Shown here one piece after another: positions 19,759 to 51,769 of a stretch of 64,000 nt of DNA. Source of the stretch: Escherichia coli (GTDB lineage Bacteria > Pseudomonadota > Gammaproteobacteria > Enterobacterales > Enterobacteriaceae); the NCBI RefSeq assembly GCF_022846255.1, contig NZ_AP025682.1. One strand, given 5' to 3'. Numbering within the stretch: the stretch's first letter is position 1; every line of letters begins with the position of its first letter. Position numbers and translations under genes: made by a program. The notes beneath the pieces were generated by a model. It had not been told where the DNA came from. It did not search any database and saw nothing but the letters and a program-made list of their open reading frames with translations.

Positions 19759-20181
19759 ATGAAGAAAGTAGCCGCGCTTGTTGCGCTAAGCCTGCTGATG
19801 GCGGGATGTGTAAGTAGTGACAAAATTGCTGTAACGCCAGAACAGCTACAGCATCATCGCTTTGTGCTGGAAAGCGTAAACGGTAAGCCCGTGACCAGCG
19901 ATAAAAATCCGCCAGAAATCAGCTTTGGTGAAAAGATGATGATTTCCGGCAGCATGTGTAACCGCTTTAGCGGTGAAGGCAAACTGTCTAATGGTGAACT
20001 GACCGCCAAAGGGCTGGCAATGACCCGTATGATGTGCGCTAACCCGCAGCTTAATGAACTCGATAACACCATTAGCGAAATGCTGAAAGAAGGTGCACAA
20101 GTGGATCTGACCGCGAACCAGTTAACGCTGGCGACCGCGAAACAGACATTAACTTATAAGCTGGCGGATTTAATGAATTAA
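19759..20181 (+). CDS. hslJ: Heat-shock lipoprotein HslJ (META domain), 140 aa
   Basis: Start at MKKVAALVALSLLMAGC (lipobox); 140 aa; downstream of ldhA. Confidence 0.85.
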   Translation: MKKVAALVALSLLMAGCVSSDKIAVTPEQLQHHRFVLESVNGKPVTSDKNPPEISFGEKMMISGSMCNRFSGEGKLSNGELTAKGLAMTRMMCANPQLNELDNTISEMLKEGAQVDLTANQLTLATAKQTLTYKLADLMN

Positions 20182-26348: not shown

Positions 26349-26502
26349 GATTCATTTCGCAAATGTGCTGACATTTTCCCCTCTAATCATTACAATTTAA
26401 ATTTATGAATTATGCATTGATAATCGCTATTATAATATCGTTCCCTGTGCATTATTATCAGTTTTTCTGGTATTAAAAGACTGGGCGCTAATAGGAGATG
26501 CA

Positions 26503-27003
26503 ATGAACCACGCAATGTTTCCTGGCATAGTTCTAGCCTGGATTATAGGTATGCCGCTGGGAATTGGTGCATTTATTGTAGGACTGTCTTGTGCAATTGC
26601 AACTGGCTATCTGAAAGATAATAGCATCATAAAGAAAGATACCATTATAGGTATCGTTTTTTCAGGAATTTTTGTCTTGACTATCAACAGGCACAAGTCA
26701 GCGGATTACAGATATCATTATTACATTACAGTTTACTCTGCATGGTATCGCCTACCATTTTTGCCACATTAAAAGCAGTCGGAATTATTCTGTCTATATA
26801 CTATTAACAGCTCCAGGGTCTATTGCTGTCCTCACCACGCGTCGCTTTCATAAGGCATTACTTATCGCCGTAACGATATCAATAACAATATCAGGCGTAT
26901 GGTTATTATATTTTCTCGACAGAGCCCCAGCGCCGACAATCGTCCTCTTATTTGCTGTAGCATTTCTTTTCGCGCTGATAATAATCAATTTTCGGAAACA
27001 ATA
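26503..27003 (+). pseudogene. Frameshifted, 5'-truncated ABC-3 family metal-transporter permease (ZnuB/SitD/MntB-like)
   Basis: Frame 1 (MNHAMFPGIVLAWIIGMPLGIGAF...IIGIVFSGIF) resembles the central part of ZnuB-like permeases; after a stop, two other frames carry the C-terminal part (...LLYFLDRAPAPTIVLLFAVAFLFALII); no N-terminus and no adjacent ATPase or binding-protein genes. Confidence 0.5.
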
Positions 27004-27283
27004 ATCTCAACAGTAGAATAAAGAGGCAAATCAATCATTACATATATAAGATGGTGCTAATATTGTACCGCCTTTAAATTGAATTTTATCCTTTCACCCT
27101 TACACAATTTAAGGAATGCAGATGACTATTTTATCAGCTCCCAGCCTTTTTCCTGGTAATCGAAAACTTGAAAATCATTAACTCTAAGAAATTCTGCCAA
27201 ATCGTTGAAATTACTTTAAATTAGACTCGAACAAATCAACCCCTGATGGGGCTTTTACTTATCAATTTAATCGTGTAGATATC

Positions 27284-27331
27284 GACCTCCATCTGCCCGC
27301 CTCAGATTCGTACCTGGTGGAGGTCTTTTTT
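27284..27331 (+). terminator. Putative intrinsic terminator inside the AT-rich remnant
   Basis: gacctcc ... ggaggtc stem with an inner atctg/cagat stem, followed by T6; no annotated gene upstream. Confidence 0.4.
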
Positions 27332-27392
27332 CGTTGCCTCTTTCCCCCTTTAGTTCAGTATAAAATCATCAAACTAATGCTGTTCACACTAT

Positions 27393-27572
27393 TTACCTCC
27401 AGCATTCTATATAAATAATAGAAATAAAAACCCCAATACATAGTGCATTGGCATGACCAAACATCAATGCCATTATACTCGCCTCTGTTAAATACTCGCT
27501 AGTTAATATGATAGGCACGCATGATATAACAATCCATATGCTAATACATAAATACACCAGTATTTTTCTCAT
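27393..27572 (-). CDS. Hypothetical 59 aa hydrophobic small protein (unverified)
   Basis: ATG-initiated ORF in ~30% GC DNA translating to MRKILVYLCISIWIVISCVPIILTSEYLTEASIMALMFGHANALCIGVFISIIYIECWR with two predicted hydrophobic segments; weak RBS; one codon under the ORF-track cutoff. Confidence 0.2.
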   Translation of the reverse strand: MRKILVYLCISIWIVISCVPIILTSEYLTEASIMALMFGHANALCIGVFISIIYIECWR

Positions 27573-28279
27573 AGTCAGTCCCTGTGATTAACAACAAGGC
27601 ATAGTTAAACATATTTCACATTCAAACGTAAACATTATTAATAAAATTCTGTCAATCAAACTGACATCACGATTCAAGCCCTCTTCAAACTGAAGGTTAG
27701 AGCAGCGTAGAACATTTCAAAACAATACACTAAAAAAATACCCGAACAAAAAACTTAATTCTTTTTTATTGTGAACTTTAGTAATTTTGCCATGCAACTC
27801 TTTATTACATTTAGGCCTATCTTATTTCATGGCAACGCAGATACAGGACCATTTCTTGTGCTATGGATAAGTAATAAGCTAGTTACATCTTTTTAAGAGA
27901 ACCATTTTCACATATCAAGATATCATCACCACCCACAATGAATTAAGTATTTTTCTTATTCTTTAGATTAGATGCGTAATGAATCCCTAACTCCATTCGG
28001 GCGTTATGGCTCTTTCATTTGAAATACATTCATATCCAATGTAATATTTCCATGCGCAAATATAACTACCGACCATACTCATCATTTATTACAGAGAATT
28101 ATTTTATTCACCGAAAAGTTTCACAAAATATCCCCTGATAGAAAACTAAAAAACACTGCATAATATCGCTATTCTGGCACTTGCGAAAAATTATATTCTG
28201 CACCTGTTGTAGCGTTCTATTTCTCCGCCTGGCAACGAATGCACAATGTCCGCCACAGTTTCTGTTCTAATTTCTTCCT

Positions 28280-28588
28280 GTGTTACCGCATCCTGTACGG
28301 GTAGCGCAACACCAGCATGCTAAGCAAGGCTTTCCCATCAGATTTCACTACGACTATTTGGGAGCGAGATGGAATGCAGCAGTAAAACGTGCTGGTATTC
28401 GCCGCCGTAATCCGTACCATACGCGACATACTTTTGCCTGCTGGCTGTTGACGGCAGGAGCGAACCCGGCATTTATAGCCAGCCAGATGGGGCATGAAAC
28501 TGCGCAGATGGTGTATGAAATTTACGGTATGTGGATTGATGACATGAACGACGAACAGGTAGCCATGTTAAATGCGCGGTTATCGTAG
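28280..28588 (+). pseudogene. 3' fragment of a phage-type tyrosine integrase (intR-like remnant)
   Basis: Only the catalytic C-terminus is present (RRRNPYHTRHTFACWLLTAGANPAFIASQMGHETAQMVYEIYGMW with the conserved His/Arg/Tyr residues); the upstream part of the frame is not integrase-like; immediately 5' of ttcA, where intR lies in K-12. Confidence 0.6.
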
Positions 28589-28639
28589 TTGCAAAGTTTG
28601 CCCTCAATATGCCCCACTTAGTACCAGAGAACTGAAATA

Positions 28640-34803: not shown

Positions 34804-36318
34804 TCAGGATGATTTATTCATAGCAGGAACCAACAAAAATGCGATAAATAACAGACCACTGATTAGCAGAAAGGTATCCGAAAATGCCATAGTTTGCGCC
34901 TCCCTCAGCATCAATTGACTCAATAATTTGGTTGAAGCCAGTATTTCCGATGTCTGGTCACTTCCACTGCGATTAAAAAACAAAGCACTTCTGGAAATGA
35001 AGTCATTCACCGTATGGGGAACAGAAACCATTTTTTCACCCATTCTCGAAAAATGAAAATTAGTTCGATTATTGAGAATAGAGCCACACAGGGCAATACC
35101 AATTGCGCCCCCAAGATTACGTGTTAAATTAAATACACCAGAGGCTAACTTCAGCCGTTCTTTTGGAATTCCCCCCAGCGTTAATGTTACGATGGGGGCC
35201 ATCGCAAACTGCTGCGAAATCCCTCTAATTGCCTGTGGAAACAGTAACTCCTGCCATCCCCATTCGTGGGTTATAGGGGTAAAAAGATACATTGAAAACA
35301 CAAATCCGCCCAGCCCCGCCATCAACAGCCATTGCAGATTTATTTTTTTACTTAACCAGAAGTAAAAGGGAACAGAAAATAACTGGAAAATACCTGTTGT
35401 GCAAACGGCAAAACCTATCTCTTCGGCATTTAATCCGCGAACCTGCCCCAAAAACACAGGTATTAAATATACAGTAGAGAATATTCCAACCCCTCCAGAA
35501 AAAGAAAAGAAACATCCCAGTGTGAAATATTTATCCTTAAAAGCATGAAGATCCATTATCGGATTGGATATTTTAAGTGTACGCGCAGCAAATAAAATAA
35601 AACTTACCAATGCCAGAACTGATGTCAGCAAAATAGTATTATCATCCAGCCATCCCCAGCGCGCTCCTTCTTCAAGGGTATATTCCAGACATCCCAGTGT
35701 CATGGCCAACAGGATAATACTCGGATAATCAGCAACTTTCAGTAAAGAGAGATCAGGTTTATCAAAATTAACCAGAAAAGGAATACTCAAAACTAAATAT
35801 ATGCCCGGTAATATATTGATATAAAATAGCCATCGCCAGTCGAGGTTATCAGTGATCCAGCCCCCCAGAGTTGGCCCTAGCGTCGGTGACAGTGAGGCCA
35901 GCGCACTGACTACCGCAGCAGCCAACCCCAACTCTTTACCCTGGTAATAAATAAACGCCGTCGTGAAAACTAAAGGGATCATGGATGCGCCAGCAACTCC
36001 CTGTAAAGCACGAAAAAAAATCATGATCTGAATATTCCATGCAAGTCCACAAGCGATACTCATTAAAGTAAATATTCCCGCGGATAGAGTAAAAAGCCAA
36101 CGAGTGGAAAATACCCGTGACAGCCACCCAGAGAGCGGAATAACAATAATCTCGGCAATTAAATAGCTGGTCTGAAGCCAGGCCATTTCGTCTTTACCTG
36201 CGGACAGACCACCACCTATTTCATTTAGGGATGACGATACAATTTGAATATCAAGCTGAGCAATAAATAATCCAATACACATACTGGCGAAAGCAATATG
36301 TTTACGCATAGACATCAT
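34804..36318 (-). CDS. MFS multidrug efflux transporter, EmrB/QacA (DHA2) family, 504 aa
   Basis: ~14 predicted TM segments with DHA2 motifs; overlaps the upstream membrane-fusion gene by 4 bp. Confidence 0.8.
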   Translation of the reverse strand: MMSMRKHIAFASMCIGLFIAQLDIQIVSSSLNEIGGGLSAGKDEMAWLQTSYLIAEIIVIPLSGWLSRVFSTRWLFTLSAGIFTLMSIACGLAWNIQIMIFFRALQGVAGASMIPLVFTTAFIYYQGKELGLAAAVVSALASLSPTLGPTLGGWITDNLDWRWLFYINILPGIYLVLSIPFLVNFDKPDLSLLKVADYPSIILLAMTLGCLEYTLEEGARWGWLDDNTILLTSVLALVSFILFAARTLKISNPIMDLHAFKDKYFTLGCFFSFSGGVGIFSTVYLIPVFLGQVRGLNAEEIGFAVCTTGIFQLFSVPFYFWLSKKINLQWLLMAGLGGFVFSMYLFTPITHEWGWQELLFPQAIRGISQQFAMAPIVTLTLGGIPKERLKLASGVFNLTRNLGGAIGIALCGSILNNRTNFHFSRMGEKMVSVPHTVNDFISRSALFFNRSGSDQTSEILASTKLLSQLMLREAQTMAFSDTFLLISGLLFIAFLLVPAMNKSS

Positions 36319-37346
36319 CTCTCATCAACACTGACGGTGACGGACAGTCCCGGGCGAAGAAGTTGCTTTAATTCCTTTGCGTCGTCAAATGCAATCCGTA
36401 CCGGGACACGCTGAACAATTTTGGTGAAATTGCCAGTGGCATTTTCTATCGGAATCAAGCTGAAACTGGCTCCTGTCGCTGGGGAAAGGCTTTCAATGTG
36501 ACCGTGAAACACTTCCCCTTTGAGAATATCAGCACGGATCTCAGCCTTCATTCCTGGCTTCATTCCCGCTATTTGGTTTTCTTTATAATTTGCATCAACC
36601 CACAACTCACTGACTGGTACTAGTGAAACTAACGATGTGCCGCCTTCCACCCAACTGCCTGTATGGGCGCTGCGGTTTGCGACAATGCCATCAATCGGCG
36701 CACGAACAAGGGTATATTCCAGATCCAGTAGTGCCTGAGTCAAAGCGGCCTGAACTTCTTCGATACTTGCACGTACGTTTTCTTCCTGAGCAGATAAAAC
36801 TGCCAGCCGTTGCTTCTCCACCAGGAAATCGTTCGCGGCTTTGCGCTCCTTTGCTGCGACCTGCTGGTAGTCAAACCTGGCGTTATCAATAATTTGTTGC
36901 GATATTGCCGCTGATTGTGCGAGTTTTTCATAACGTTCAGTATCTCGCAGGCGCTTTTGCTCCTCATGTTTTACTGCCTGCCATGTTTCACTGGCACTTT
37001 GAATTATCGACTGCTGCATCGCAATAGTGGCTTGAATGCTTTCGAGATTGGCTTTGCTACTTTTTATTTTTGCCTCAAGCCTGCCGACATTTGCACGATA
37101 ATCCCGATCATCGAGACGCAGGATAATATCGCCTTTTTTTACACTCTGATTATCGCGCACCTCTATAGCAGAAATATAACCAGAAACTTTACTTGCCACC
37201 GTGGTGATATTACCACCAATGTAAGCATCATCCGTCGTCTGTATAAATCTTCCTTTGCTTACCCACCAGATAAAAAAGACAACGCCAGCCAAAAGAATAC
37301 CGATCGCTACCACCCCAATAAGCTGTTTTTTAGAAATTATCATCAT
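36315..37346 (-). CDS. Membrane fusion protein, HlyD/EmrA family, 343 aa
   Basis: N-terminal TM anchor, coiled-coil region and HlyD-type beta-barrel; translationally coupled to the MFS gene. Confidence 0.8.
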   Translation of the reverse strand: MMIISKKQLIGVVAIGILLAGVVFFIWWVSKGRFIQTTDDAYIGGNITTVASKVSGYISAIEVRDNQSVKKGDIILRLDDRDYRANVGRLEAKIKSSKANLESIQATIAMQQSIIQSASETWQAVKHEEQKRLRDTERYEKLAQSAAISQQIIDNARFDYQQVAAKERKAANDFLVEKQRLAVLSAQEENVRASIEEVQAALTQALLDLEYTLVRAPIDGIVANRSAHTGSWVEGGTSLVSLVPVSELWVDANYKENQIAGMKPGMKAEIRADILKGEVFHGHIESLSPATGASFSLIPIENATGNFTKIVQRVPVRIAFDDAKELKQLLRPGLSVTVSVDER

Positions 37347-37439
37347 TCTTTACACCGTATATATCCGGAAACTTGCATACGTCATATTTAAAATTTAACA
37401 TGGCTTATTTGATGATTTCTGACAAAATACCTACTGTAA

Positions 37440-38255
37440 ATGACAATCACACTGCAACCCAAAGCATCACCAGGGCATCACATTATCGGACTGGATTCGG
37501 AACATCTGAATGGAGGCACAGTTCCCTGGCATAAACATCTCTATGCCCAGTTGCTTTACCCGGCTGAAGGAGTCGTTCGTATATGGGCTGGAGAAAGCGT
37601 CTGGCTAGTGCATGCCAGCAGCGCGCTTTGGCTGCCCCCACAAATGCCGCATAAGTTTGTTGCGACAGGCAACGTACTTTTAAAAACCGTACTGGTTTCA
37701 GAAGCGGAAAGTGAAACGCTGGGAAAAGTTTGCTTCATGACGGGTATTTCACCCCTGTTAAGGGAATTACTAATTGCAATTAACCAACTTCCACCGTCGC
37801 AAAGTACCACAGATAAACAACAGTTACGTTTTTCAGCCCTCGAGACACTGATACTTCAGGAAATAAAAATGGGGGTGAAAATGTCACTTGAACTCCCTTG
37901 GCCAAATGATGAGCTGCTACAGCAGCTTTGTGAGAATTTGCTAAACAACCAAGGGTATCTGCCAACACTGGATAATCTAGCGGATAAAATTAACGTCAGT
38001 AGCCGTACACTCATGCGCTTATTTGTTAAAGAGACGGGATTAACATTTCGCCACTGGGTTCAGCAAATGCACGTTATTTCTGCAGTGACGCTTCTTGATG
38101 ATGGATATTCGTTGACCAAAATTGCCCATCGTCTGGGCTATGCCTCAGCTGAATCGTTCGGCAATATGTTTAAGCGTCGAACGGGCTACTCACCCGGTAA
38201 ATTTACTCGTCGATTAACGATGCATGATTATGCAATCACAAGACAAATGATTTAA
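37440..38255 (+). CDS. AraC-family transcriptional regulator with cupin-like N-terminal domain, 271 aa
   Basis: C-terminal AraC HTH (KIAHRLGYASAESFGNMFKRRTGYSPGKF); divergent from the MFP-MFS operon. Confidence 0.75.
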   Translation: MTITLQPKASPGHHIIGLDSEHLNGGTVPWHKHLYAQLLYPAEGVVRIWAGESVWLVHASSALWLPPQMPHKFVATGNVLLKTVLVSEAESETLGKVCFMTGISPLLRELLIAINQLPPSQSTTDKQQLRFSALETLILQEIKMGVKMSLELPWPNDELLQQLCENLLNNQGYLPTLDNLADKINVSSRTLMRLFVKETGLTFRHWVQQMHVISAVTLLDDGYSLTKIAHRLGYASAESFGNMFKRRTGYSPGKFTRRLTMHDYAITRQMI

Positions 38256-38324
38256 CTTATATTTTCGTGAAATCTGTCACTGAAGAAAATTGGCAACGGA
38301 TGGGTAAAACCGTTATAACACTGT

Positions 38325-38420
38325 CACCGGTCACCAGGACCCCAGGCCGGATTTAAGACGAGGATGCACTGCTGTGTGTACTGTAGAGTCTGGCGGATGT
38401 CGACAGGCTCTATTTTTTTA
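38325..38420 (+). ncRNA. mcaS: McaS (IsrA) small RNA
   Basis: ...ggccggatttaagacgaggatgcactgctgtgtgtactgtagagtctggcggatgtcgacaggctctattttttt matches McaS as recalled, including GGA motifs and terminal hairpin plus U-run. Confidence 0.65.
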
Positions 38421-38626
38421 TTCATTTTTTAGCTCTGTAAATAACCACATTCTCGCCGGGATTGGGGAATGAGTGACGAGATCAGTGGTGTCTGGCGGCT
38501 ATCACGCCACAGAATCAAATAACGGATAGCCTACGGTAAAATTTCGCTGACTGGAATTATCCCACCCTCGATCCATGTGATGGCTTGCCCTCATTTCTTC
38601 AGGCAGAAAAATCAAAAAATCGCTTT

Positions 38627-38776
38627 ATGCTTAAATACTGCGACAAACCAGACGCGAAACCTGGTACTTACTTTTTGTTAGTATTAATCTTTTTGGTGGT
38701 ATGGCTGCTGATGTTGCTGGCGTGGTATCTTGTTGGCTTGCCGATAGGTCCGGGTATTTACCCACGTTTGTCTTAA
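38627..38776 (+). CDS. Hypothetical 49 aa single-TM peptide immediately upstream of ogt (possibly a 3' remnant of abgT)
   Basis: [55 protein letters not shown]; no clear RBS; occupies the position of the abgT 3' end in K-12. Confidence 0.25.
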
Positions 38777-38786
38777 GAGAGAACGG

Positions 38787-39302
38787 ATGCTGAGATTACT
38801 TGAAGAAAAAATTGCCACGCCACTGGGTCCACTGTGGGTGATTTGCGATGAGCAATTTCGCCTGCGGGCGGTTGAATGGGAAGAGTACAGCGAACGCATG
38901 GTGCAGCTGCTGGACATCCATTACCGCAAAGAAGGCTATGAACGTATTTCTGCCACCAACCCAGGTGGTTTAAGTGACAAGCTTCGTGAATATTTTGCCG
39001 GTAATCTTAGCATTATTGATACGCTTCCCACTGCCACGGGGGGGACGCCATTTCAGCGCGAAGTCTGGAAAACACTGCGCACTATCCCCTGCGGGCAGGT
39101 AATGCATTATGGCCAACTGGCTGAACAATTAGGCCGCCCTGGCGCGGCGCGTGCCGTTGGTGCGGCAAACGGATCGAATCCCATCAGCATCGTCGTACCT
39201 TGCCATCGGGTTATTGGCCGAAACGGCACCATGACCGGATATGCAGGCGGAGTTCAGCGAAAAGAGTGGTTATTGCGCCACGAAGGTTATCTTTTGCTGT
39301 AA
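38787..39302 (+). CDS. ogt: O6-alkylguanine-DNA alkyltransferase, 171 aa
   Basis: Active-site PCHRVI motif; 171 aa; upstream of fnr. Confidence 0.9.
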
Positions 39303-45970: not shown

Positions 45971-46891
45971 ATGATGAATAATAAAGTCAGCTTCACTAAC
46001 AGCAATAATCCAACCATCTCTTTGTCTGCAGTGATCTATTTCCCTCCAAAATTTGATGAAACCCGTCAGTATCCGGCAATTGTGGTATCTCACCCAGGTG
46101 GGGGCGTTAAAGAGCAAACGGCCGGAACCTATGCCGAAAAACTGGCGGAAAAGGGATTTGTCACTATTGCTTATGACGCATCTTATCAAGGTGAAAGCGG
46201 CGGCGAGCCGCGTCAGTTAGAAAACCCATACATTCGTACTGAAGACGTCAGTGCCGTGATTGATTACCTGACAACGCTTTCTTATGTCGACAATACCCGA
46301 ATTGGTGCGATGGGAATTTGTGCCGGTGCAGGATATACAGCCAATGCTGCAATTCAGGATCGCCGCATCAAGGCCATCGGTACTGTTAGTGCGGTCAATA
46401 TTGGTTCGATGTTCCGTAATGGTTGGGAAAACAATGTGAAATCTATTGATGCCCTACCATACGTTGACGCGGGTTCAAACGCCCGAACCAGCGATATTAG
46501 CAGCGGAGAATACGCCACTATGCCACTGGCACCAATGAAGGAGTCCGATGCGCCGAACGAAGAACTGCGTCAGGCCTGGGAATATTACCACACCCCTCGC
46601 GCGCAGTATCCAACAGCACCGGGTTACGCTACTTTGCGCAGCCTTAACCAGATTATTACCTATGATGCTTACCATATGGCGGAAGTGTACCTGACTCAGC
46701 CGATACAGATTGTGGCGGGCAGCCAGGCTGGGAGCAAATGGATGAGTGACGACCTGTACGATCGAGCATCAAGCCAGGATAAACGCTATCACATTGTTGA
46801 AGGCGCAAACCATATGGATCTTTATGATGGCAAAGTCTATATGGCTGAAGCAATTTCAGTATTAGCTCCGTTCTTTGAGGAAACTCTGTAA
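45971..46891 (+). CDS. ycjY: Alpha/beta-hydrolase (dienelactone-hydrolase-like), 306 aa
   Basis: Start at MMNNKVSF after a gagg RBS; hydrolase fold with nucleophile elbow (GICAGAG); 306 aa. Confidence 0.85.
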   Translation: MMNNKVSFTNSNNPTISLSAVIYFPPKFDETRQYPAIVVSHPGGGVKEQTAGTYAEKLAEKGFVTIAYDASYQGESGGEPRQLENPYIRTEDVSAVIDYLTTLSYVDNTRIGAMGICAGAGYTANAAIQDRRIKAIGTVSAVNIGSMFRNGWENNVKSIDALPYVDAGSNARTSDISSGEYATMPLAPMKESDAPNEELRQAWEYYHTPRAQYPTAPGYATLRSLNQIITYDAYHMAEVYLTQPIQIVAGSQAGSKWMSDDLYDRASSQDKRYHIVEGANHMDLYDGKVYMAEAISVLAPFFEETL

Positions 46892-46961
46892 TGAAACATA
46901 TTCAAATCCGTAATAGTGATATGGCCTGGCATATTGCTGCCAATAATCTGGGAAAAGTTTC

Positions 46962-47600
46962 ATGAAAAATGTACTGATTCTTGGTGCTGGCGGTCAGATA
47001 GCCCGCCATGTGATTAATCAACTGGCAGATAAACAAACCATTAAACAAACTTTATTTGCCCGTCAGCCAGCAAAAATCCACAAACCCTATCCAACTAATA
47101 GCAAGATTATTATGGGGGATGTACTGAATCATGCAGCATTGAAGCAGGCCATGCAGGGACAGGATGTTGTGTATGCCAACCTTACGGGGGAAGATTTAGA
47201 TATTCAGGCAAATTCAGTGATCGCTGCGATGAAAGCCTGTGATGTTAAACGTCTGATCTTTGTTCTTTCCCTCGGTATTTATGATGAAGTTCCAGGAAAA
47301 TTTGGCGAATGGAATAATGCAGTTATTGGTGAACCCCTAAAACCATTCCGCAGGGCTGCGGATGCAATTGAGGCTTCTGGACTGGAATATACAATTCTTC
47401 GCCCTGCCTGGCTGACTGATGAAGATATTATTGATTATGAGCTTACCTCACGCAATGAACCATTCAAAGGTACGATCGTATCACGTAAGAGTGTCGCAGC
47501 ATTAATCACAGATATCATCGATAAACCTGAGAAACACATTGGTGAGAATATAGGCATCAATCAACCCGGGACTGATGGTGATAAGCCCTTCTTCATGTAA
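46962..47600 (+). CDS. ymjC: NAD(P)-binding Rossmann-fold protein (NmrA/SDR-like), full-length 212 aa
   Basis: N-terminal GAGGQIARH dinucleotide-binding motif; uninterrupted here, whereas ymjC is recalled as a pseudogene in K-12. Confidence 0.7.
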   Translation: MKNVLILGAGGQIARHVINQLADKQTIKQTLFARQPAKIHKPYPTNSKIIMGDVLNHAALKQAMQGQDVVYANLTGEDLDIQANSVIAAMKACDVKRLIFVLSLGIYDEVPGKFGEWNNAVIGEPLKPFRRAADAIEASGLEYTILRPAWLTDEDIIDYELTSRNEPFKGTIVSRKSVAALITDIIDKPEKHIGENIGINQPGTDGDKPFFM

Positions 47601-47770
47601 ATCAATTATATAGCTACCATCGTACTGTACTATGTGCAGTACGATTTATTAAACTTATTAAGGTGAACTGATCAATCAGATGCGATTAACATGTGTAGAA
47701 CCAGTAAGAATAAAATACGCCATGTATATAACATTACGACAATTCTAATATCTGCACATCAATGAAAATA

Positions 47771-47797
47771 CAAACAACTTCCGGCAAAAAAGTGATA
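47771..47797 (+). repeat. Copy B of the ~27 bp imperfect direct repeat
   Basis: caaacaacttccggcaaaaaagtgata; 94-120 bp upstream of the mpaA start codon. Confidence 0.6.
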
Positions 47798-47890
47798 CAA
47801 GATCGATGACATAGCGTTGAAGAAAAGGATTTGATAATCCGCAAAATTTGCACAACACTGCCTGTAATACTTCCTGAACCAGAGACGATC

Positions 47891-48619
47891 ATGACCGTAA
47901 CTCGCCCACGCGCCGAACGCGGCGCATTTCCGCCCGGAACAGAACATTACGGACGTTCATTATTGGGCGCGCCGTTAATCTGGTTTCCGGCCCCTGCAGC
48001 CAGTCACGAAAGTGGTTTGATTCTGGCTGGCACTCACGGTGATGAAAACTCTTCGATCGTCACGCTCTCCTGTGCTCTGCGGACTTTGACACCTTCTTTG
48101 CGCCGCCATCATGTGGTGCTGTGTGTGAATCCTGACGGCTGCCAGTTAGGGTTACGGGCCAATGCTAATGGTGTGGATTTAAACCGAAACTTTCCGGCAG
48201 CGAACTGGAAGGAAGGTGAAACAGTTTATCGCTGGAACAGCGCCGCTGAAGAACGTGATGTTGTATTACTGACAGGTGACAAACCTGGCTCCGAACCTGA
48301 AACCCAGGCGCTGTGCCAGCTTATACACCGCATTCAACCTGCCTGGGTGGTCTCATTCCACGATCCGCTGGCCTGTATTGAAGATCCCAGACACAGCGAA
48401 TTAGGTGAATGGCTGGCCCAGGCGTTTGAATTGCCTCTGGTAACCAGCGTCGGTTATGAAACGCCTGGCTCTTTCGGCAGTTGGTGTGCAGATCTCAACT
48501 TGCATTGCATCACCGCAGAGTTTCCACCCATCTCCTCCGACGAAGCCAGCGAAAAATATCTCTTTGCGATGGCAAACTTGCTGCGCTGGCATCCTAAAGA
48601 TGCAATTCGCCCGTCGTGA
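47891..48619 (+). CDS. mpaA: Murein peptide amidase A (zinc carboxypeptidase family), 242 aa
   Basis: Start at MTVTRPRAERG; zinc-binding HGDE motif; 242 aa. Confidence 0.85.
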   Translation: MTVTRPRAERGAFPPGTEHYGRSLLGAPLIWFPAPAASHESGLILAGTHGDENSSIVTLSCALRTLTPSLRRHHVVLCVNPDGCQLGLRANANGVDLNRNFPAANWKEGETVYRWNSAAEERDVVLLTGDKPGSEPETQALCQLIHRIQPAWVVSFHDPLACIEDPRHSELGEWLAQAFELPLVTSVGYETPGSFGSWCADLNLHCITAEFPPISSDEASEKYLFAMANLLRWHPKDAIRPS

Positions 48620-49559
48620 ACTGAAGCGCCGGTTCCACATCTACCGCCAGCCAGGTCGGTCCGTCAAGATCGGCGAAACTGACCTGCGGCACCAGCGGTA
48701 AAGCGGCGCTAATGGCACGAGAGGTACACAACATGCAGCCCAGCATCAGACGAAAACCTTGTGCACGCGCTTCAGTCGCCAGCGCCAGCGCTTCCGTCAG
48801 ACCACCGGTTTTATCAAGCTTAATGTTAACCATCTCATAGCGCCCTTTCAGCGCCTTCAGATTGCTACGAGTATGACAACTTTCATCAGCACAAATCGGT
48901 AACGGATGAATAAAATTCTCCAGCGCCGCATCGTCCTGCGCAGGAAGCGGTTGTTCAAGCATCGCAACGCCTAAATCCGCCAATAGCTGGCAACGCGCCG
49001 CCAACCCTTCTGCACGCCAGGATTCATTTGCATCAACGATCAGCGTCGCATCGGGCACAGCTGTGCGAATTGCCACCATCCGCTCACTGATAAGATGGTT
49101 ATCCAGCTTCACTTTCAGTAATTTCGCGCCTGCCTGCCAGAGTGTTGATGCACTATTGGCCATCTGATCAGGCGTACCGATGACTATCGTCTGTGCCGTG
49201 GTGACTGTCTCGGGAAGCGTTATGCCGATCAAATCAGCCAGCGATTGCTGCTGTTTTCGCGCCGCCAGATCCCACAATGCACAATCCAGCGCATTACGTG
49301 CTGCGCCGGCAGGGAGGATTTTTTGCAACTCCTCCCGTGTCAGCCCTTTCTCTAATTGCGGCACGACGCTCATAATTTGCGCCATTACCGAGGCATCACT
49401 TTCCCCATAACGCGGATACGGCGTGCATTCGCCGGTGCCTTTAATACCCTCTTCTTCCAGTTCAACCACCACCACGCGCGCTTCACTGCGACTTCCCCGA
49501 GCAATCACAAACGGGGTATGTAAGGGCCAGGCCTCCTCAAATACCTTAACGGTTCTCAT
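48594..49559 (-). CDS. ycjG: L-Ala-D/L-Glu epimerase (enolase superfamily), 321 aa
   Basis: Start at MRTVKVFEEAW; enolase-superfamily fold with KxK motif (KVKLDNH); 3' end overlaps the 3' end of mpaA by 26 bp. Confidence 0.85.
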   Translation of the reverse strand: MRTVKVFEEAWPLHTPFVIARGSRSEARVVVVELEEEGIKGTGECTPYPRYGESDASVMAQIMSVVPQLEKGLTREELQKILPAGAARNALDCALWDLAARKQQQSLADLIGITLPETVTTAQTIVIGTPDQMANSASTLWQAGAKLLKVKLDNHLISERMVAIRTAVPDATLIVDANESWRAEGLAARCQLLADLGVAMLEQPLPAQDDAALENFIHPLPICADESCHTRSNLKALKGRYEMVNIKLDKTGGLTEALALATEARAQGFRLMLGCMLCTSRAISAALPLVPQVSFADLDGPTWLAVDVEPALQFTTGELHL

Positions 49560-49677
49560 CTTTACTCCTTGTTGTCGCGGTGGTCTGCGGATTAAGCGCA
49601 AATAGCGTTTGCTGTGTTATTGACAGTTAGCATAAACTAGGTGTGACGTTAACTATATGTAAACAGGAAAGATAATC

Positions 49678-50184
49678 ATGTCACAAACCGTTCATTTCCA
49701 GGGCAACCCGGTTACAGTCGCCAATTCCATCCCGCAGGCGGGTAGCAAAGCGCAGACTTTTACTCTCGTGGCAAAAGATCTGTCTGACGTCACCCTCGGT
49801 CAGTTTGCGGGTAAACGCAAAGTGCTGAACATTTTCCCGAGTATTGATACCGGTGTTTGCGCCGCATCAGTACGTAAGTTTAACCAACTGGCAACCGAGA
49901 TCGACAACACCGTTGTGCTGTGTATCTCTGCCGATCTGCCGTTCGCCCAGTCTCGTTTCTGCGGCGCAGAAGGTCTGAACAACGTTATCACCCTCTCCAC
50001 TTTCCGTAACGCTGAATTCCTGCAAGCCTACGGTGTGGCAATTGCTGATGGCCCACTGAAAGGTCTGGCAGCGCGTGCCGTTGTGGTTATTGATGAAAAT
50101 GACAATGTGATTTTCAGCCAGCTGGTGGATGAAATCACCACCGAGCCGGATTACGAAGCAGCTCTGGCTGTACTGAAAGCATAA
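49678..50184 (+). CDS. tpx: Thiol peroxidase (atypical 2-Cys peroxiredoxin), 168 aa
   Basis: Peroxidatic Cys in SIDTGVCA; 168 aa. Confidence 0.95.
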
Positions 50185-50189
50185 GTTAA

Positions 50190-50222
50190 TATGCCTGATG
50201 GTGTTGCACCATCAGGCATATT
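50190..50222. terminator. Bidirectional hairpin between tpx and tyrR
   Basis: atatgcctgatggtg-ttgc-accatcaggcatat, a 15-bp perfect stem between convergent genes. Confidence 0.6.
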
Positions 50223-50227
50223 CACGC

Positions 50228-51769
50228 TTACTCTTCGTTCTTCTTCTGACTCAGACCATATTCCCGCAACTTATTGGCAATCGCGGTATGTGAAACGCCG
50301 AGACGTTTTGCCAGTTTGCGCGTGCTGGGATAATTGCGATAAAGCTGAGTTAATACCGAGCGTTCAAAACGGCTGGTGATTTCGTCCAGCGAACCTTCCA
50401 TCGCATCTTCGCCCACGGCTACCGTTGCGGCGTCATAATCCGGCAACAAAATATCCTGTGGACGCAGCTCATAACCGTCCAGTTGTGTCAGTGCGCGATA
50501 GATAGCGTTCTTTAACTGCCGCACATTTCCCGGCCACGCATAACGCGTAAGTACAGTATTCAGATCAGCGGCCAGTTTCGGACGCGGCACGCCCTGCTCG
50601 TCGGCAAAGCGGGCGACGAACAGCTCGGTTAACGGCATGATGTCCTGCGGACAGTCACGTAGCGGCGGCAGATTGAGCGTCAACACGTTCAGACGATAAT
50701 AGAGATCTTCACGGAACACGCCTTTTTGCACCAGTTCGACCAGATTCTTCTGCGTAGCACAAATCACCCGCACATCGACATGCACCTCATGGTCTTCGCC
50801 AACCCGACGGAAGGTGCCATCATTAAGGAAACGCAGTAATTTCGCCTGCATCCGTGGTGACATCTCACCTATTTCATCCAACAGCACCGAACCACCGTTC
50901 GCCTGCTCAAAGAACCCTTTCTTCCCTTCCGGAGCATGACCAAACAGTTCACTCTCGACCGCATCTTCCGGTATAGACGCACAGTTCAGTGCCAGGTAAG
51001 GTTTGCTCGCTCTGGGGCTTGCCTGATGACAGGCATACGCAAAGAGATCTTTTCCGGTGCCGGTATCACCCGTAATCAGCAGTGGCGCGCTTAGCATCGC
51101 CAGTTTCTGCGCCTGTTCGACAACATGCTTCATTCTCGGGCTGACAGCGACAATTTGACTGAAGGCGCTGACATCCTGGGCGGCGACATTTTGCAACTGA
51201 CGGCCCATACGAATCGTTGATCGCAGCATCACCACCGCACCGGTCAGGACGTGTTGATCATTTTCATCCTGAAGATAAACAGGCGTAATCTCCATCAGGA
51301 AATTCTGCCCATTAATAACGACATGCTCGTTATGCGAATCTTGCGGTTCGCTTTCCAGCCAGCGTAAAAAATTAAAGCCGTTAATCAATTGCGCGGCGGT
51401 ATGGTTGCGCAGGCGATCCAATTTTTGCCCAAAAAGCTGACAGCTCGCCGGGTTCGCCATATCCACTTTGCTTTTCATATCGACAGAGAGCACAGGTTCA
51501 GGCAACGCCTCCAGTAACGCGCTCAACGCCAGATGCTCACGTTCGGAAGGCATCCACGGGACAGTACGCACATCGGTAACACCTGCAATACGGCGTATTT
51601 CGGCCATCAGACTGCTGAAACTCTCAAACTCCAGTTCAGCAAAATTGAGGTAGATTCGCCCAATGGGGTCAATCTCAATACCGCGTAAATCAATGCCTCT
51701 TAGCACGAGTAGATCGAGTAATTCGCGGGTCAGACCGAGTCGGTCTTCACAAAAGACTTCCAGACGCAT
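50228..51769 (-). CDS. tyrR: Transcriptional regulator TyrR (sigma-54-type AAA+ domain), 513 aa
   Basis: Start at MRLEVFCEDRLGLTRELLDLL; ACT/PAS N-terminus, AAA+ domain (GDTGTGKD, GAFTGA-like region) and C-terminal HTH; 513 aa. Confidence 0.95.
   Translation of the reverse strand: MRLEVFCEDRLGLTRELLDLLVLRGIDLRGIEIDPIGRIYLNFAELEFESFSSLMAEIRRIAGVTDVRTVPWMPSEREHLALSALLEALPEPVLSVDMKSKVDMANPASCQLFGQKLDRLRNHTAAQLINGFNFLRWLESEPQDSHNEHVVINGQNFLMEITPVYLQDENDQHVLTGAVVMLRSTIRMGRQLQNVAAQDVSAFSQIVAVSPRMKHVVEQAQKLAMLSAPLLITGDTGTGKDLFAYACHQASPRASKPYLALNCASIPEDAVESELFGHAPEGKKGFFEQANGGSVLLDEIGEMSPRMQAKLLRFLNDGTFRRVGEDHEVHVDVRVICATQKNLVELVQKGVFREDLYYRLNVLTLNLPPLRDCPQDIMPLTELFVARFADEQGVPRPKLAADLNTVLTRYAWPGNVRQLKNAIYRALTQLDGYELRPQDILLPDYDAATVAVGEDAMEGSLDEITSRFERSVLTQLYRNYPSTRKLAKRLGVSHTAIANKLREYGLSQKKNEE

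Follow-up and report, generated by a model that had tools for sequence, protein, structure and literature searches.

The genes mpaA and ycjG of Escherichia coli, encoding murein tripeptide amidase A and L-Ala-D/L-Glu epimerase, respectively, lie on opposite strands and run into each other at their 3' ends. This arrangement raises the question of whether the two coding regions truly overlap, how such a junction arose, and whether the transcription that it entails has any regulatory role. The locus was analyzed within a 64,000-nucleotide stretch of E. coli DNA, referred to here as the window, to which all unmarked positions belong. In reading frames and RefSeq annotation alike, mpaA (242 amino acids) occupies 47891..48619 on the plus strand and ends with a TGA codon at 48617-48619, and ycjG (321 amino acids) occupies 48594..49559 on the minus strand and ends with a TAG codon at 48596-48594. 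A first-pass annotation had proposed a 26-bp overlap of the 3' ends, and the open reading frames, together with the RefSeq entries for strains RM14723 and K-12, showed this to be exact: the two coding sequences share 48594..48619 tail to tail in phase (123:132), with each stop codon located inside the coding sequence of the partner. Read on the plus strand, the shared segment encodes part of P235 of MpaA, followed by KDAIRPS and the stop; read on the minus strand, it encodes part of F314 of YcjG, followed by TTGELHL and the stop.

Both reading frames correspond to well-characterized proteins. MpaA matched the NCBIfam equivalog NF007897 with 478 bits and YcjG matched NF011708 (L-Ala-D/L-Glu epimerase) with 677 bits, both far over the cutoff, and structures have been solved for both (PDB 5hxd for MpaA and 1jpd for YcjG). 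Literature on the pathway confirmed that the two enzymes catalyze consecutive steps of murein peptide processing, as had been stated from the sequence, and both genes are listed as members of the regulon that the repressor PgrR controls (PMC5934670). The same 26-bp overlap is annotated by RefSeq/PGAP in strain RM14723, to which positions 47600-49700 are 100% identical (this segment has matches in 5413 complete genomes), and in the RefSeq record of K-12 MG1655, where ycjG is placed at 1388930..1389895 and mpaA at 1389870..1390598. A 106-nt junction sequence was found in 5414 of 5426 complete E. coli genomes, 5363 of which carried it at an identity of at least 99%, and in a sampled O157:H7 genome it was 100% identical to the window.

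The overlap would disappear if it were an annotation artefact, that is, if a true stop lay elsewhere, hidden by an error in sequencing or by some programmed event. One structural observation points in this direction, as the deposited chain of E. coli MpaA (5hxd) ends at D237, five residues short of the annotated end. With 5363 complete genomes carrying the junction at 99% identity or more, however, the 237-residue chain reflects a limit of the construct or of the deposited sequence and not a natural stop, and a stop after D237 would in any case still leave an overlap of 11 bp. In YcjG, the structure 1jpd spans residues 1 to 321 and is thus resolved to the last residue, L321. Since both stop codons are directly legible and unambiguous in the sequence, the artefact explanation is effectively refuted, and we regard it as essentially excluded. 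The mpaA/ycjG pair is accordingly a convergent overlapping pair of coding sequences, in which both genes are genuine, each stop lies in the partner, and the arrangement is kept in orthologous loci; it is an ordinary overlap that has already been annotated and catalogued.

How ordinary it is can be judged from the survey of Lillo & Krakauer (2007, PMC2174442), who counted 58 convergent coding sequence overlaps in E. coli. In that survey, phase (123:132) was the commonest for convergent overlaps of at least 5 nt, only 20% of the genes involved had predicted intrinsic terminators, and the overlaps were well fitted by a model of stop-codon mutation. The pair studied here shares with these the phase, the lack of intrinsic terminators, and an apparent origin by stop mutation; its 26 bp exceed the modal convergent overlap of 4 nt, and otherwise nothing essential differs. 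When the genes of the window were read antisense in phase (123:132), stops occurred at about 0.043 per codon, so that open runs average about 23 codons. A run of 7 to 8 codons is therefore unremarkable, and 26 bp lies within chance expectation and is, if anything, short. Eleven convergent junctions between intact genes were present in the window, of which two overlap, the others being spaced by 20 to 128 bp.

The second overlap in the window joins hslJ (plus strand, ending at 20181) and ydbJ (minus strand, ending at 20178) over 4 bp at 20178-20181, and ydbJ-hslJ as well as smrA-dgcM, which has a 20-bp spacer, likewise appear in a published list of excludons (PMC12288877). The window is imperfectly colinear with RM14723, with an 18-nt offset at hslJ/ydbJ. 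Positions 2194217-2198636 and 2204911-2207096 of RM14723 correspond roughly to 35000-39300 and 26400-28600 of the window; in these two tracts, RefSeq annotates ogt and a DHA2 MFS efflux permease gene of RM14723 as frameshifted pseudogenes and integrase/DUF1627 fragments beside ttcA. Upstream of mpaA, an intact gene for a 212-amino-acid SDR-family oxidoreductase was found at 46962-47600, where the K-12 annotation has nothing but the fragments ymjD and ymjC; about 660 bp, at 47101-47760 of the window, are missing from K-12 MG1655.

The history of the junction was followed in related genomes. Scanning a single genome for each species yielded 80 Enterobacteriaceae loci, and stops were located in frame in 79 loci, comprising 78 of the 80 returned plus RM14723. 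The coding sequences overlap in 74 of these 79 loci and are apart in 5. An overlap of 10 bp, in which the two stops are interleaved as TCAnnnnTGA, was seen in 44 of the 79 loci, including those of Enterobacter, Raoultella/Klebsiella, Kluyvera, Kosakonia, Leclercia, Lelliottia, and Trabulsiella, and the 26-bp form was seen in 26, which represent Escherichia, Salmonella, and Citrobacter. Rarer overlaps measured 4 bp (three loci), 33 bp (one locus), and 47 bp (one locus). Two apparent overlaps of 247 bp and three of four apparent 47-bp overlaps, obtained when the loci were initially processed, proved to come from tblastn alignments extending through stops and were corrected by the in-frame scan, by which the remaining 47-bp overlap was confirmed as true (locus L021).

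The two main forms differ at a single site. Junction listings and a MAFFT alignment placed a 1-nt indel at 48595..48596 between the 26-bp form (CCTAAAGATG) and the 10-bp form (CCTCAAAGATGA), the 26-bp form being one nucleotide shorter. On the ycjG strand, the indel converts the stop from TGA to TAG; on the mpaA strand, it puts the gene out of frame with the older TGA, so that five more codons are read until the next stop. Judged by taxonomic breadth in an unrooted comparison, the 26-bp form probably derives from the 10-bp form by deletion of this nucleotide. Stops have also shifted independently in other lineages. In Citrobacter youngae-like genomes, both stops are displaced by 21 nt. Overlaps are present as well in Pantoea (26 bp), Erwinia (21 bp), and Cronobacter (19 bp), and there they come from an extended tail of YcjG.

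In four species (L042, L045, L048, and L052), a spacer of 284 to 331 bp separates mpaA from ycjG. These spacers share a conserved 39-amino-acid open reading frame with a hydrophobic tail on the ycjG strand (for example, MIEWEDESVATQDELMKRMIDTVAAVVLVLIVVAGLYFA), for which an NCBIfam search returned no match, and those of L042, L045, and L048 contain a classic bidirectional terminator of A-tract, hairpin, and U-tract beside mpaA. Two of these records, titled 'Citrobacter sp. 18056' (L042) and 'Chryseobacterium sp. 18061' (L048), contain similar mpaA-ycjG loci with spacers of about 300 bp, which sets them apart from the Citrobacter loci of the 26-bp class. The title 'Chryseobacterium' does not match an Enterobacteriaceae-type locus, and the label 'Citrobacter' may also be wrong.

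Beyond these families, the pairing fades. In an outgroup locus (L086; GCA_000406285.1, 2501-3807), the gene order is mppA (minus), mpaA (plus), and tpx (plus), the MpaA protein is 67% identical, and the 75-nt gap between mpaA and tpx contains no ycjG. From this order, either ycjG entered the space between mpaA and tpx in the line leading to Enterobacteriaceae and Erwiniaceae, or the outgroup has lost it. Four more distant MpaA homologues found by tblastn (L087-L090; 45 to 52% identity) had no ycjG neighbour in any case, and the convergent pairing was therefore traced no further than Enterobacteriaceae and Erwiniaceae.

The last residues of MpaA, K236 to S242 (48596..48616, plus strand), lie past the conserved fold and are an antisense read-out of ycjG: the NF007897 profile, with 237 positions, stops at MpaA residue 236, and the Vibrio MpaA structure 4axv can be aligned only up to residue 235 of the E. 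coli protein. After the motif LLRW(H/Q)P, the MpaA tail varied in length and sequence across the loci and was also variable in a set of 22 species, and the YcjG C terminus, F-T-T-G-x-L-H-L, was conserved throughout the loci compared. Within the overlap, site entropy in the 22 genomes with the 26-bp form was 0.06 at ycjG codon position 2 and 0.71 at position 3; third positions of mpaA outside the overlap gave 0.93. Third positions of ycjG were somewhat less variable inside the overlap than outside it (0.71 versus 1.31), which tells against a neutral reading of the junction, in a comparison that draws on a tiny sample of 9 sites and includes stop-codon positions. Because variability in the overlap tracks the codon positions of ycjG, the segment appears to evolve as ycjG sequence, with the MpaA tail as a by-product. 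On these sequence patterns, the extra residues of MpaA are most simply read as an unconstrained appendage, a passive antisense read-out of the YcjG C terminus.

A junction of this kind leaves the end of each transcript to be explained. The first-pass annotation had held that neither gene has room for a terminator of its own. The factual part of this claim stood, as consensus and permissive scans found no canonical intrinsic terminator after the mpaA or ycjG stop, and neither scan found a G+C-rich bidirectional hairpin flanked by A- and U-tracts at the junction; the implied difficulty did not, since Rho terminates transcription within the neighbouring gene, a common situation among the roughly 58 convergent overlaps of E. 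coli (PMC2174442). No Rfam-type RNA family was found at 46500-50500 with an E value of 1 or below. A candidate ycjG terminator embedded in mpaA at 48602-48550, composed of a hairpin and the tract UAUUUUUCG, was rejected: its fold was no better than that of shuffled sequences (z = -0.74), its U-tract consists of the conserved S-E-K-Y codons of MpaA, and no Term-seq 3' end has been reported at the site (PMC7815308).

Past the stop, the RNA of both strands is untranslated and has the high C and low G content that suits Rho. For RNA of the ycjG strand, a tract within mpaA at 48150..48290 (minus) has more C than G (C/G 1.3 to 1.85); for RNA of the mpaA strand, the untranslated region antisense to ycjG at 48724..49555 (plus) has C/G ratios mostly of 1.1 to 2.75. 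The former tract holds a published Rho termination region. Adams et al. (eLife 2021, PMC7815308; supplementary file 2) recorded such a region at K-12 position 1390286, in RNA of the ycjG strand that runs antisense to mpaA. Without bicyclomycin, coverage there fell from 47 to 14, and when the drug was present it changed from 58 to 68 (Rho score 3.94, p = 7e-5). By the verified conversion between K-12 position x and the window (window = 1438489 - x), this peak is at 48203, inside mpaA and 391 nt beyond the ycjG stop. Rho termination of untranslated or antisense RNA, as described in that study, thus fits the ycjG strand with its C-over-G RNA; for the mpaA strand, antisense to ycjG, the same data record no 3' end and no equivalent Rho region.

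Two further features of the mpaA region were observed. RNA of the ycjG strand at 48255-48330 (minus), 265 to 340 nt past the ycjG stop, has an unusually stable predicted fold of -24.7 kcal/mol (z = -2.7) that sits just upstream of the Rho peak at 48203. At the other end of mpaA, a Term-seq 3' end was reported at K-12 position 1390559 (PMC7815308), equivalent to 47930 and 39 nt into the mpaA reading frame; just before it, at 47910-47930 (plus), lies a 6-bp hairpin made entirely of G:C pairs (GCGCCGAACGCGGCGC) followed by AUUU. This 3' end may mark a place where mpaA transcripts are attenuated or processed early in the gene.

Evidence that RNAs from the two strands meet was also available from published data. 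Among the perfect RNase III-type duplexes listed in mpaA by Huang et al. (PMC7373196, Table S3), two of 21 to 22 nt that were captured with p19 map to 48019-48042 and about 48074-48096, and they demonstrate pairing of sense and antisense RNA within the gene. In addition, ycjG-mpaA is listed among 165 convergent excludons, with its transcripts overlapping in half or more of the 58 MG1655 RNA-seq samples used (PMC12288877). The operon tables of SMRT-Cappable-seq make no mention of the genes of the mpaA/ycjG region. Taken with the Rho region, the duplexes and the excludon listing support the earlier proposal that transcription of each gene reads into the other.

From this read-through, mutual antisense interference had been suggested, and the overlap could then be a regulatory excludon, in which a terminator-less junction was selected because the two genes restrain each other through convergent transcription and through RNase III cutting of their paired 3' regions, thus fixing the ratio of the two or the timing of their expression. 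The excludon listing, the duplexes inside mpaA, the extension of ycjG-strand transcription by about 390 nt into mpaA, and the retention of the overlapped state in most Enterobacteriaceae loci as well as in Pantoea, Erwinia, and Cronobacter are all consistent with such a device. Several observations argue against it. The genes encode consecutive enzymes of one pathway and are listed together in the PgrR regulon, and mutually exclusive expression would therefore make little physiological sense. Read counts of mpaA and ycjG are far under those of tpx (PMC7373196, Table S1), so that polymerase collisions should be rare, and double-stranded RNA captured by p19 at 1 RPM or more came from 87% of E. 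coli genes, with the mpaA duplexes scarce at only about 1 to 4 RPM (PMC7373196). The overlap is conserved in neither length nor sequence, there is no conserved RNA structure or Rfam family, and the literature examined contained no report of anticorrelated mpaA and ycjG expression. Mutual interference is thus still conjectural and fits poorly with the shared regulon, the single pathway, and the low read counts, and we consider selection of the junction as an excludon to be unlikely.

Classical excludons, such as that of mogR and the flagellar operon in Listeria, pair genes of opposing function whose expression is reciprocal. The mpaA/ycjG pair is like the mogR excludon in its opposite strands, overlapping transcripts, and RNA duplexes that RNase III can cleave, and unlike it in combining sequential genes of one pathway that share the PgrR regulon. 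The E. coli MG1655 excludome compiled with ExcludonFinder (Sanmartin et al., NAR 2025, PMC12288877) contains this same locus; the catalogue records transcript overlap only, gives no per-locus analysis, and reports no reciprocal regulation for ycjG-mpaA, and it does not cover the overlap of the coding sequences, its origin by stop shifts, its persistence across the family, or the Rho site. Bidirectional termination and programmed RNA polymerase collision, as described by Wang, Ju, Liu et al. (bioRxiv 10.1101/2022.10.23.513370), need a stem-loop between the convergent genes. The mpaA/ycjG pair resembles that system as a convergent pair whose polymerases must meet, but it lacks the stem-loop element.

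Beyond ycjG on the mpaA strand lies tpx (49678..50184, plus strand), which is co-directional with mpaA, and the order mpaA (plus), ycjG (minus), tpx (plus) is that of a noncontiguous operon. In such an operon, mpaA and tpx would be carried on one RNA that runs antisense across ycjG, coupling tpx to mpaA, silencing ycjG, or both. The published excludome names mpaA-ycjG-tpx as one of three E. coli noncontiguous operons (PMC12288877, Table 1). On the plus strand, no canonical intrinsic terminator was found from 48619 to a weak hairpin in the ycjG-tpx intergenic region (49593..49611), whose 7 pairs include 3 of G-C and whose U-tract is poor; no terminator-like site comes earlier once the mpaA stop has been passed. 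The outgroup locus, with tpx directly after mpaA, is likewise compatible with this arrangement. Against it, tpx read counts are about 9 to 50 times those of mpaA (PMC7373196, Table S1) and a promoter-like site is present at 49649-49676, just upstream of tpx; read-through from mpaA would therefore add little to tpx. Moreover, the untranslated stretch that an mpaA transcript would have to cross, about 940 nt with C strongly over G (up to 2.75), is an ideal Rho substrate, which makes full read-through doubtful, and the published claim rests on continuity of coverage (PMC12288877). A functional noncontiguous operon at this locus is therefore, in our estimate, unlikely.

The same catalogue lists tpx-ycjG as a divergent excludon (PMC12288877). 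The dominant Term-seq 3' end of tpx, at K-12 position 1388306 (about 50183 in the window, plus strand), lies within the tpx stop codon with no terminator hairpin before it; the convergent spacer between tpx and tyrR measures just 43 bp, and tpx is highly expressed.

The junction might be kept by selection as a small antisense coupling device that tunes the ratio or order of expression of the two murein-tripeptide enzymes, with PgrR-controlled transcription of the mpaA operon running across ycjG towards tpx and ycjG transcription running into mpaA. If true, this would explain why the overlap persists in Enterobacteriaceae and Erwiniaceae despite independent stop shifts, and its persistence over two families, with a spacer in only 5 of 79 loci, could reflect selection and not a mutational ratchet. 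We nevertheless give such a device a low likelihood.

The explanation that we favour, with a probability of roughly three in four, is that the overlap is genuine and ancient, was made and repeatedly remodelled by shifts of stop codons, and includes no purpose-built regulatory device. The ancestral-type state would have had stops interleaved by 10 bp, as in most Enterobacteriaceae today. In the line of Escherichia, Salmonella, and Citrobacter, the 1-nt deletion would then have produced the TAG stop of ycjG and carried mpaA past its TGA, so that mpaA came to read five further codons antisense to the conserved C terminus of YcjG (TTGxLHL). With no spacer and no intrinsic terminator, neither mRNA can avoid entering the partner gene. 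Transcription from the ycjG strand is, on the published data, stopped by Rho about 0.4 kb into mpaA, and transcription from the mpaA strand would run antisense over ycjG and either end by Rho or reach tpx. Some of the overlapping RNA forms duplexes cut by RNase III, and the low read counts of both genes suggest that mutual damping is likely mild at most. The most economical reading is that the junction lost its spacer long ago because these transcripts are ended by Rho and by no hairpin. Later drift would have proceeded by further stop-codon shifts, with whichever C-terminal tail is dispensable absorbing the cost.

Parts of this picture were already known: the overlap is present in the K-12 annotation, the gene pair has an entry in the excludon catalogue, and the Rho region and the RNase III duplexes are contained in supplementary tables. 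The present analysis adds that a 1-nt indel separates the 26-bp and 10-bp forms, that the MpaA end is a passive antisense read-out of the YcjG C terminus, and that the overlap persisted at the family level while its stops shifted repeatedly on either side. The importance of these additions beyond bookkeeping is small. The locus does lend itself to teaching, as a neat case of the origin and drift of convergent overlaps where there is no intrinsic terminator to require a spacer; and if the junction were to tune the levels of MpaA, YcjG, and Tpx, it would represent a rare excludon that links genes of the same pathway.
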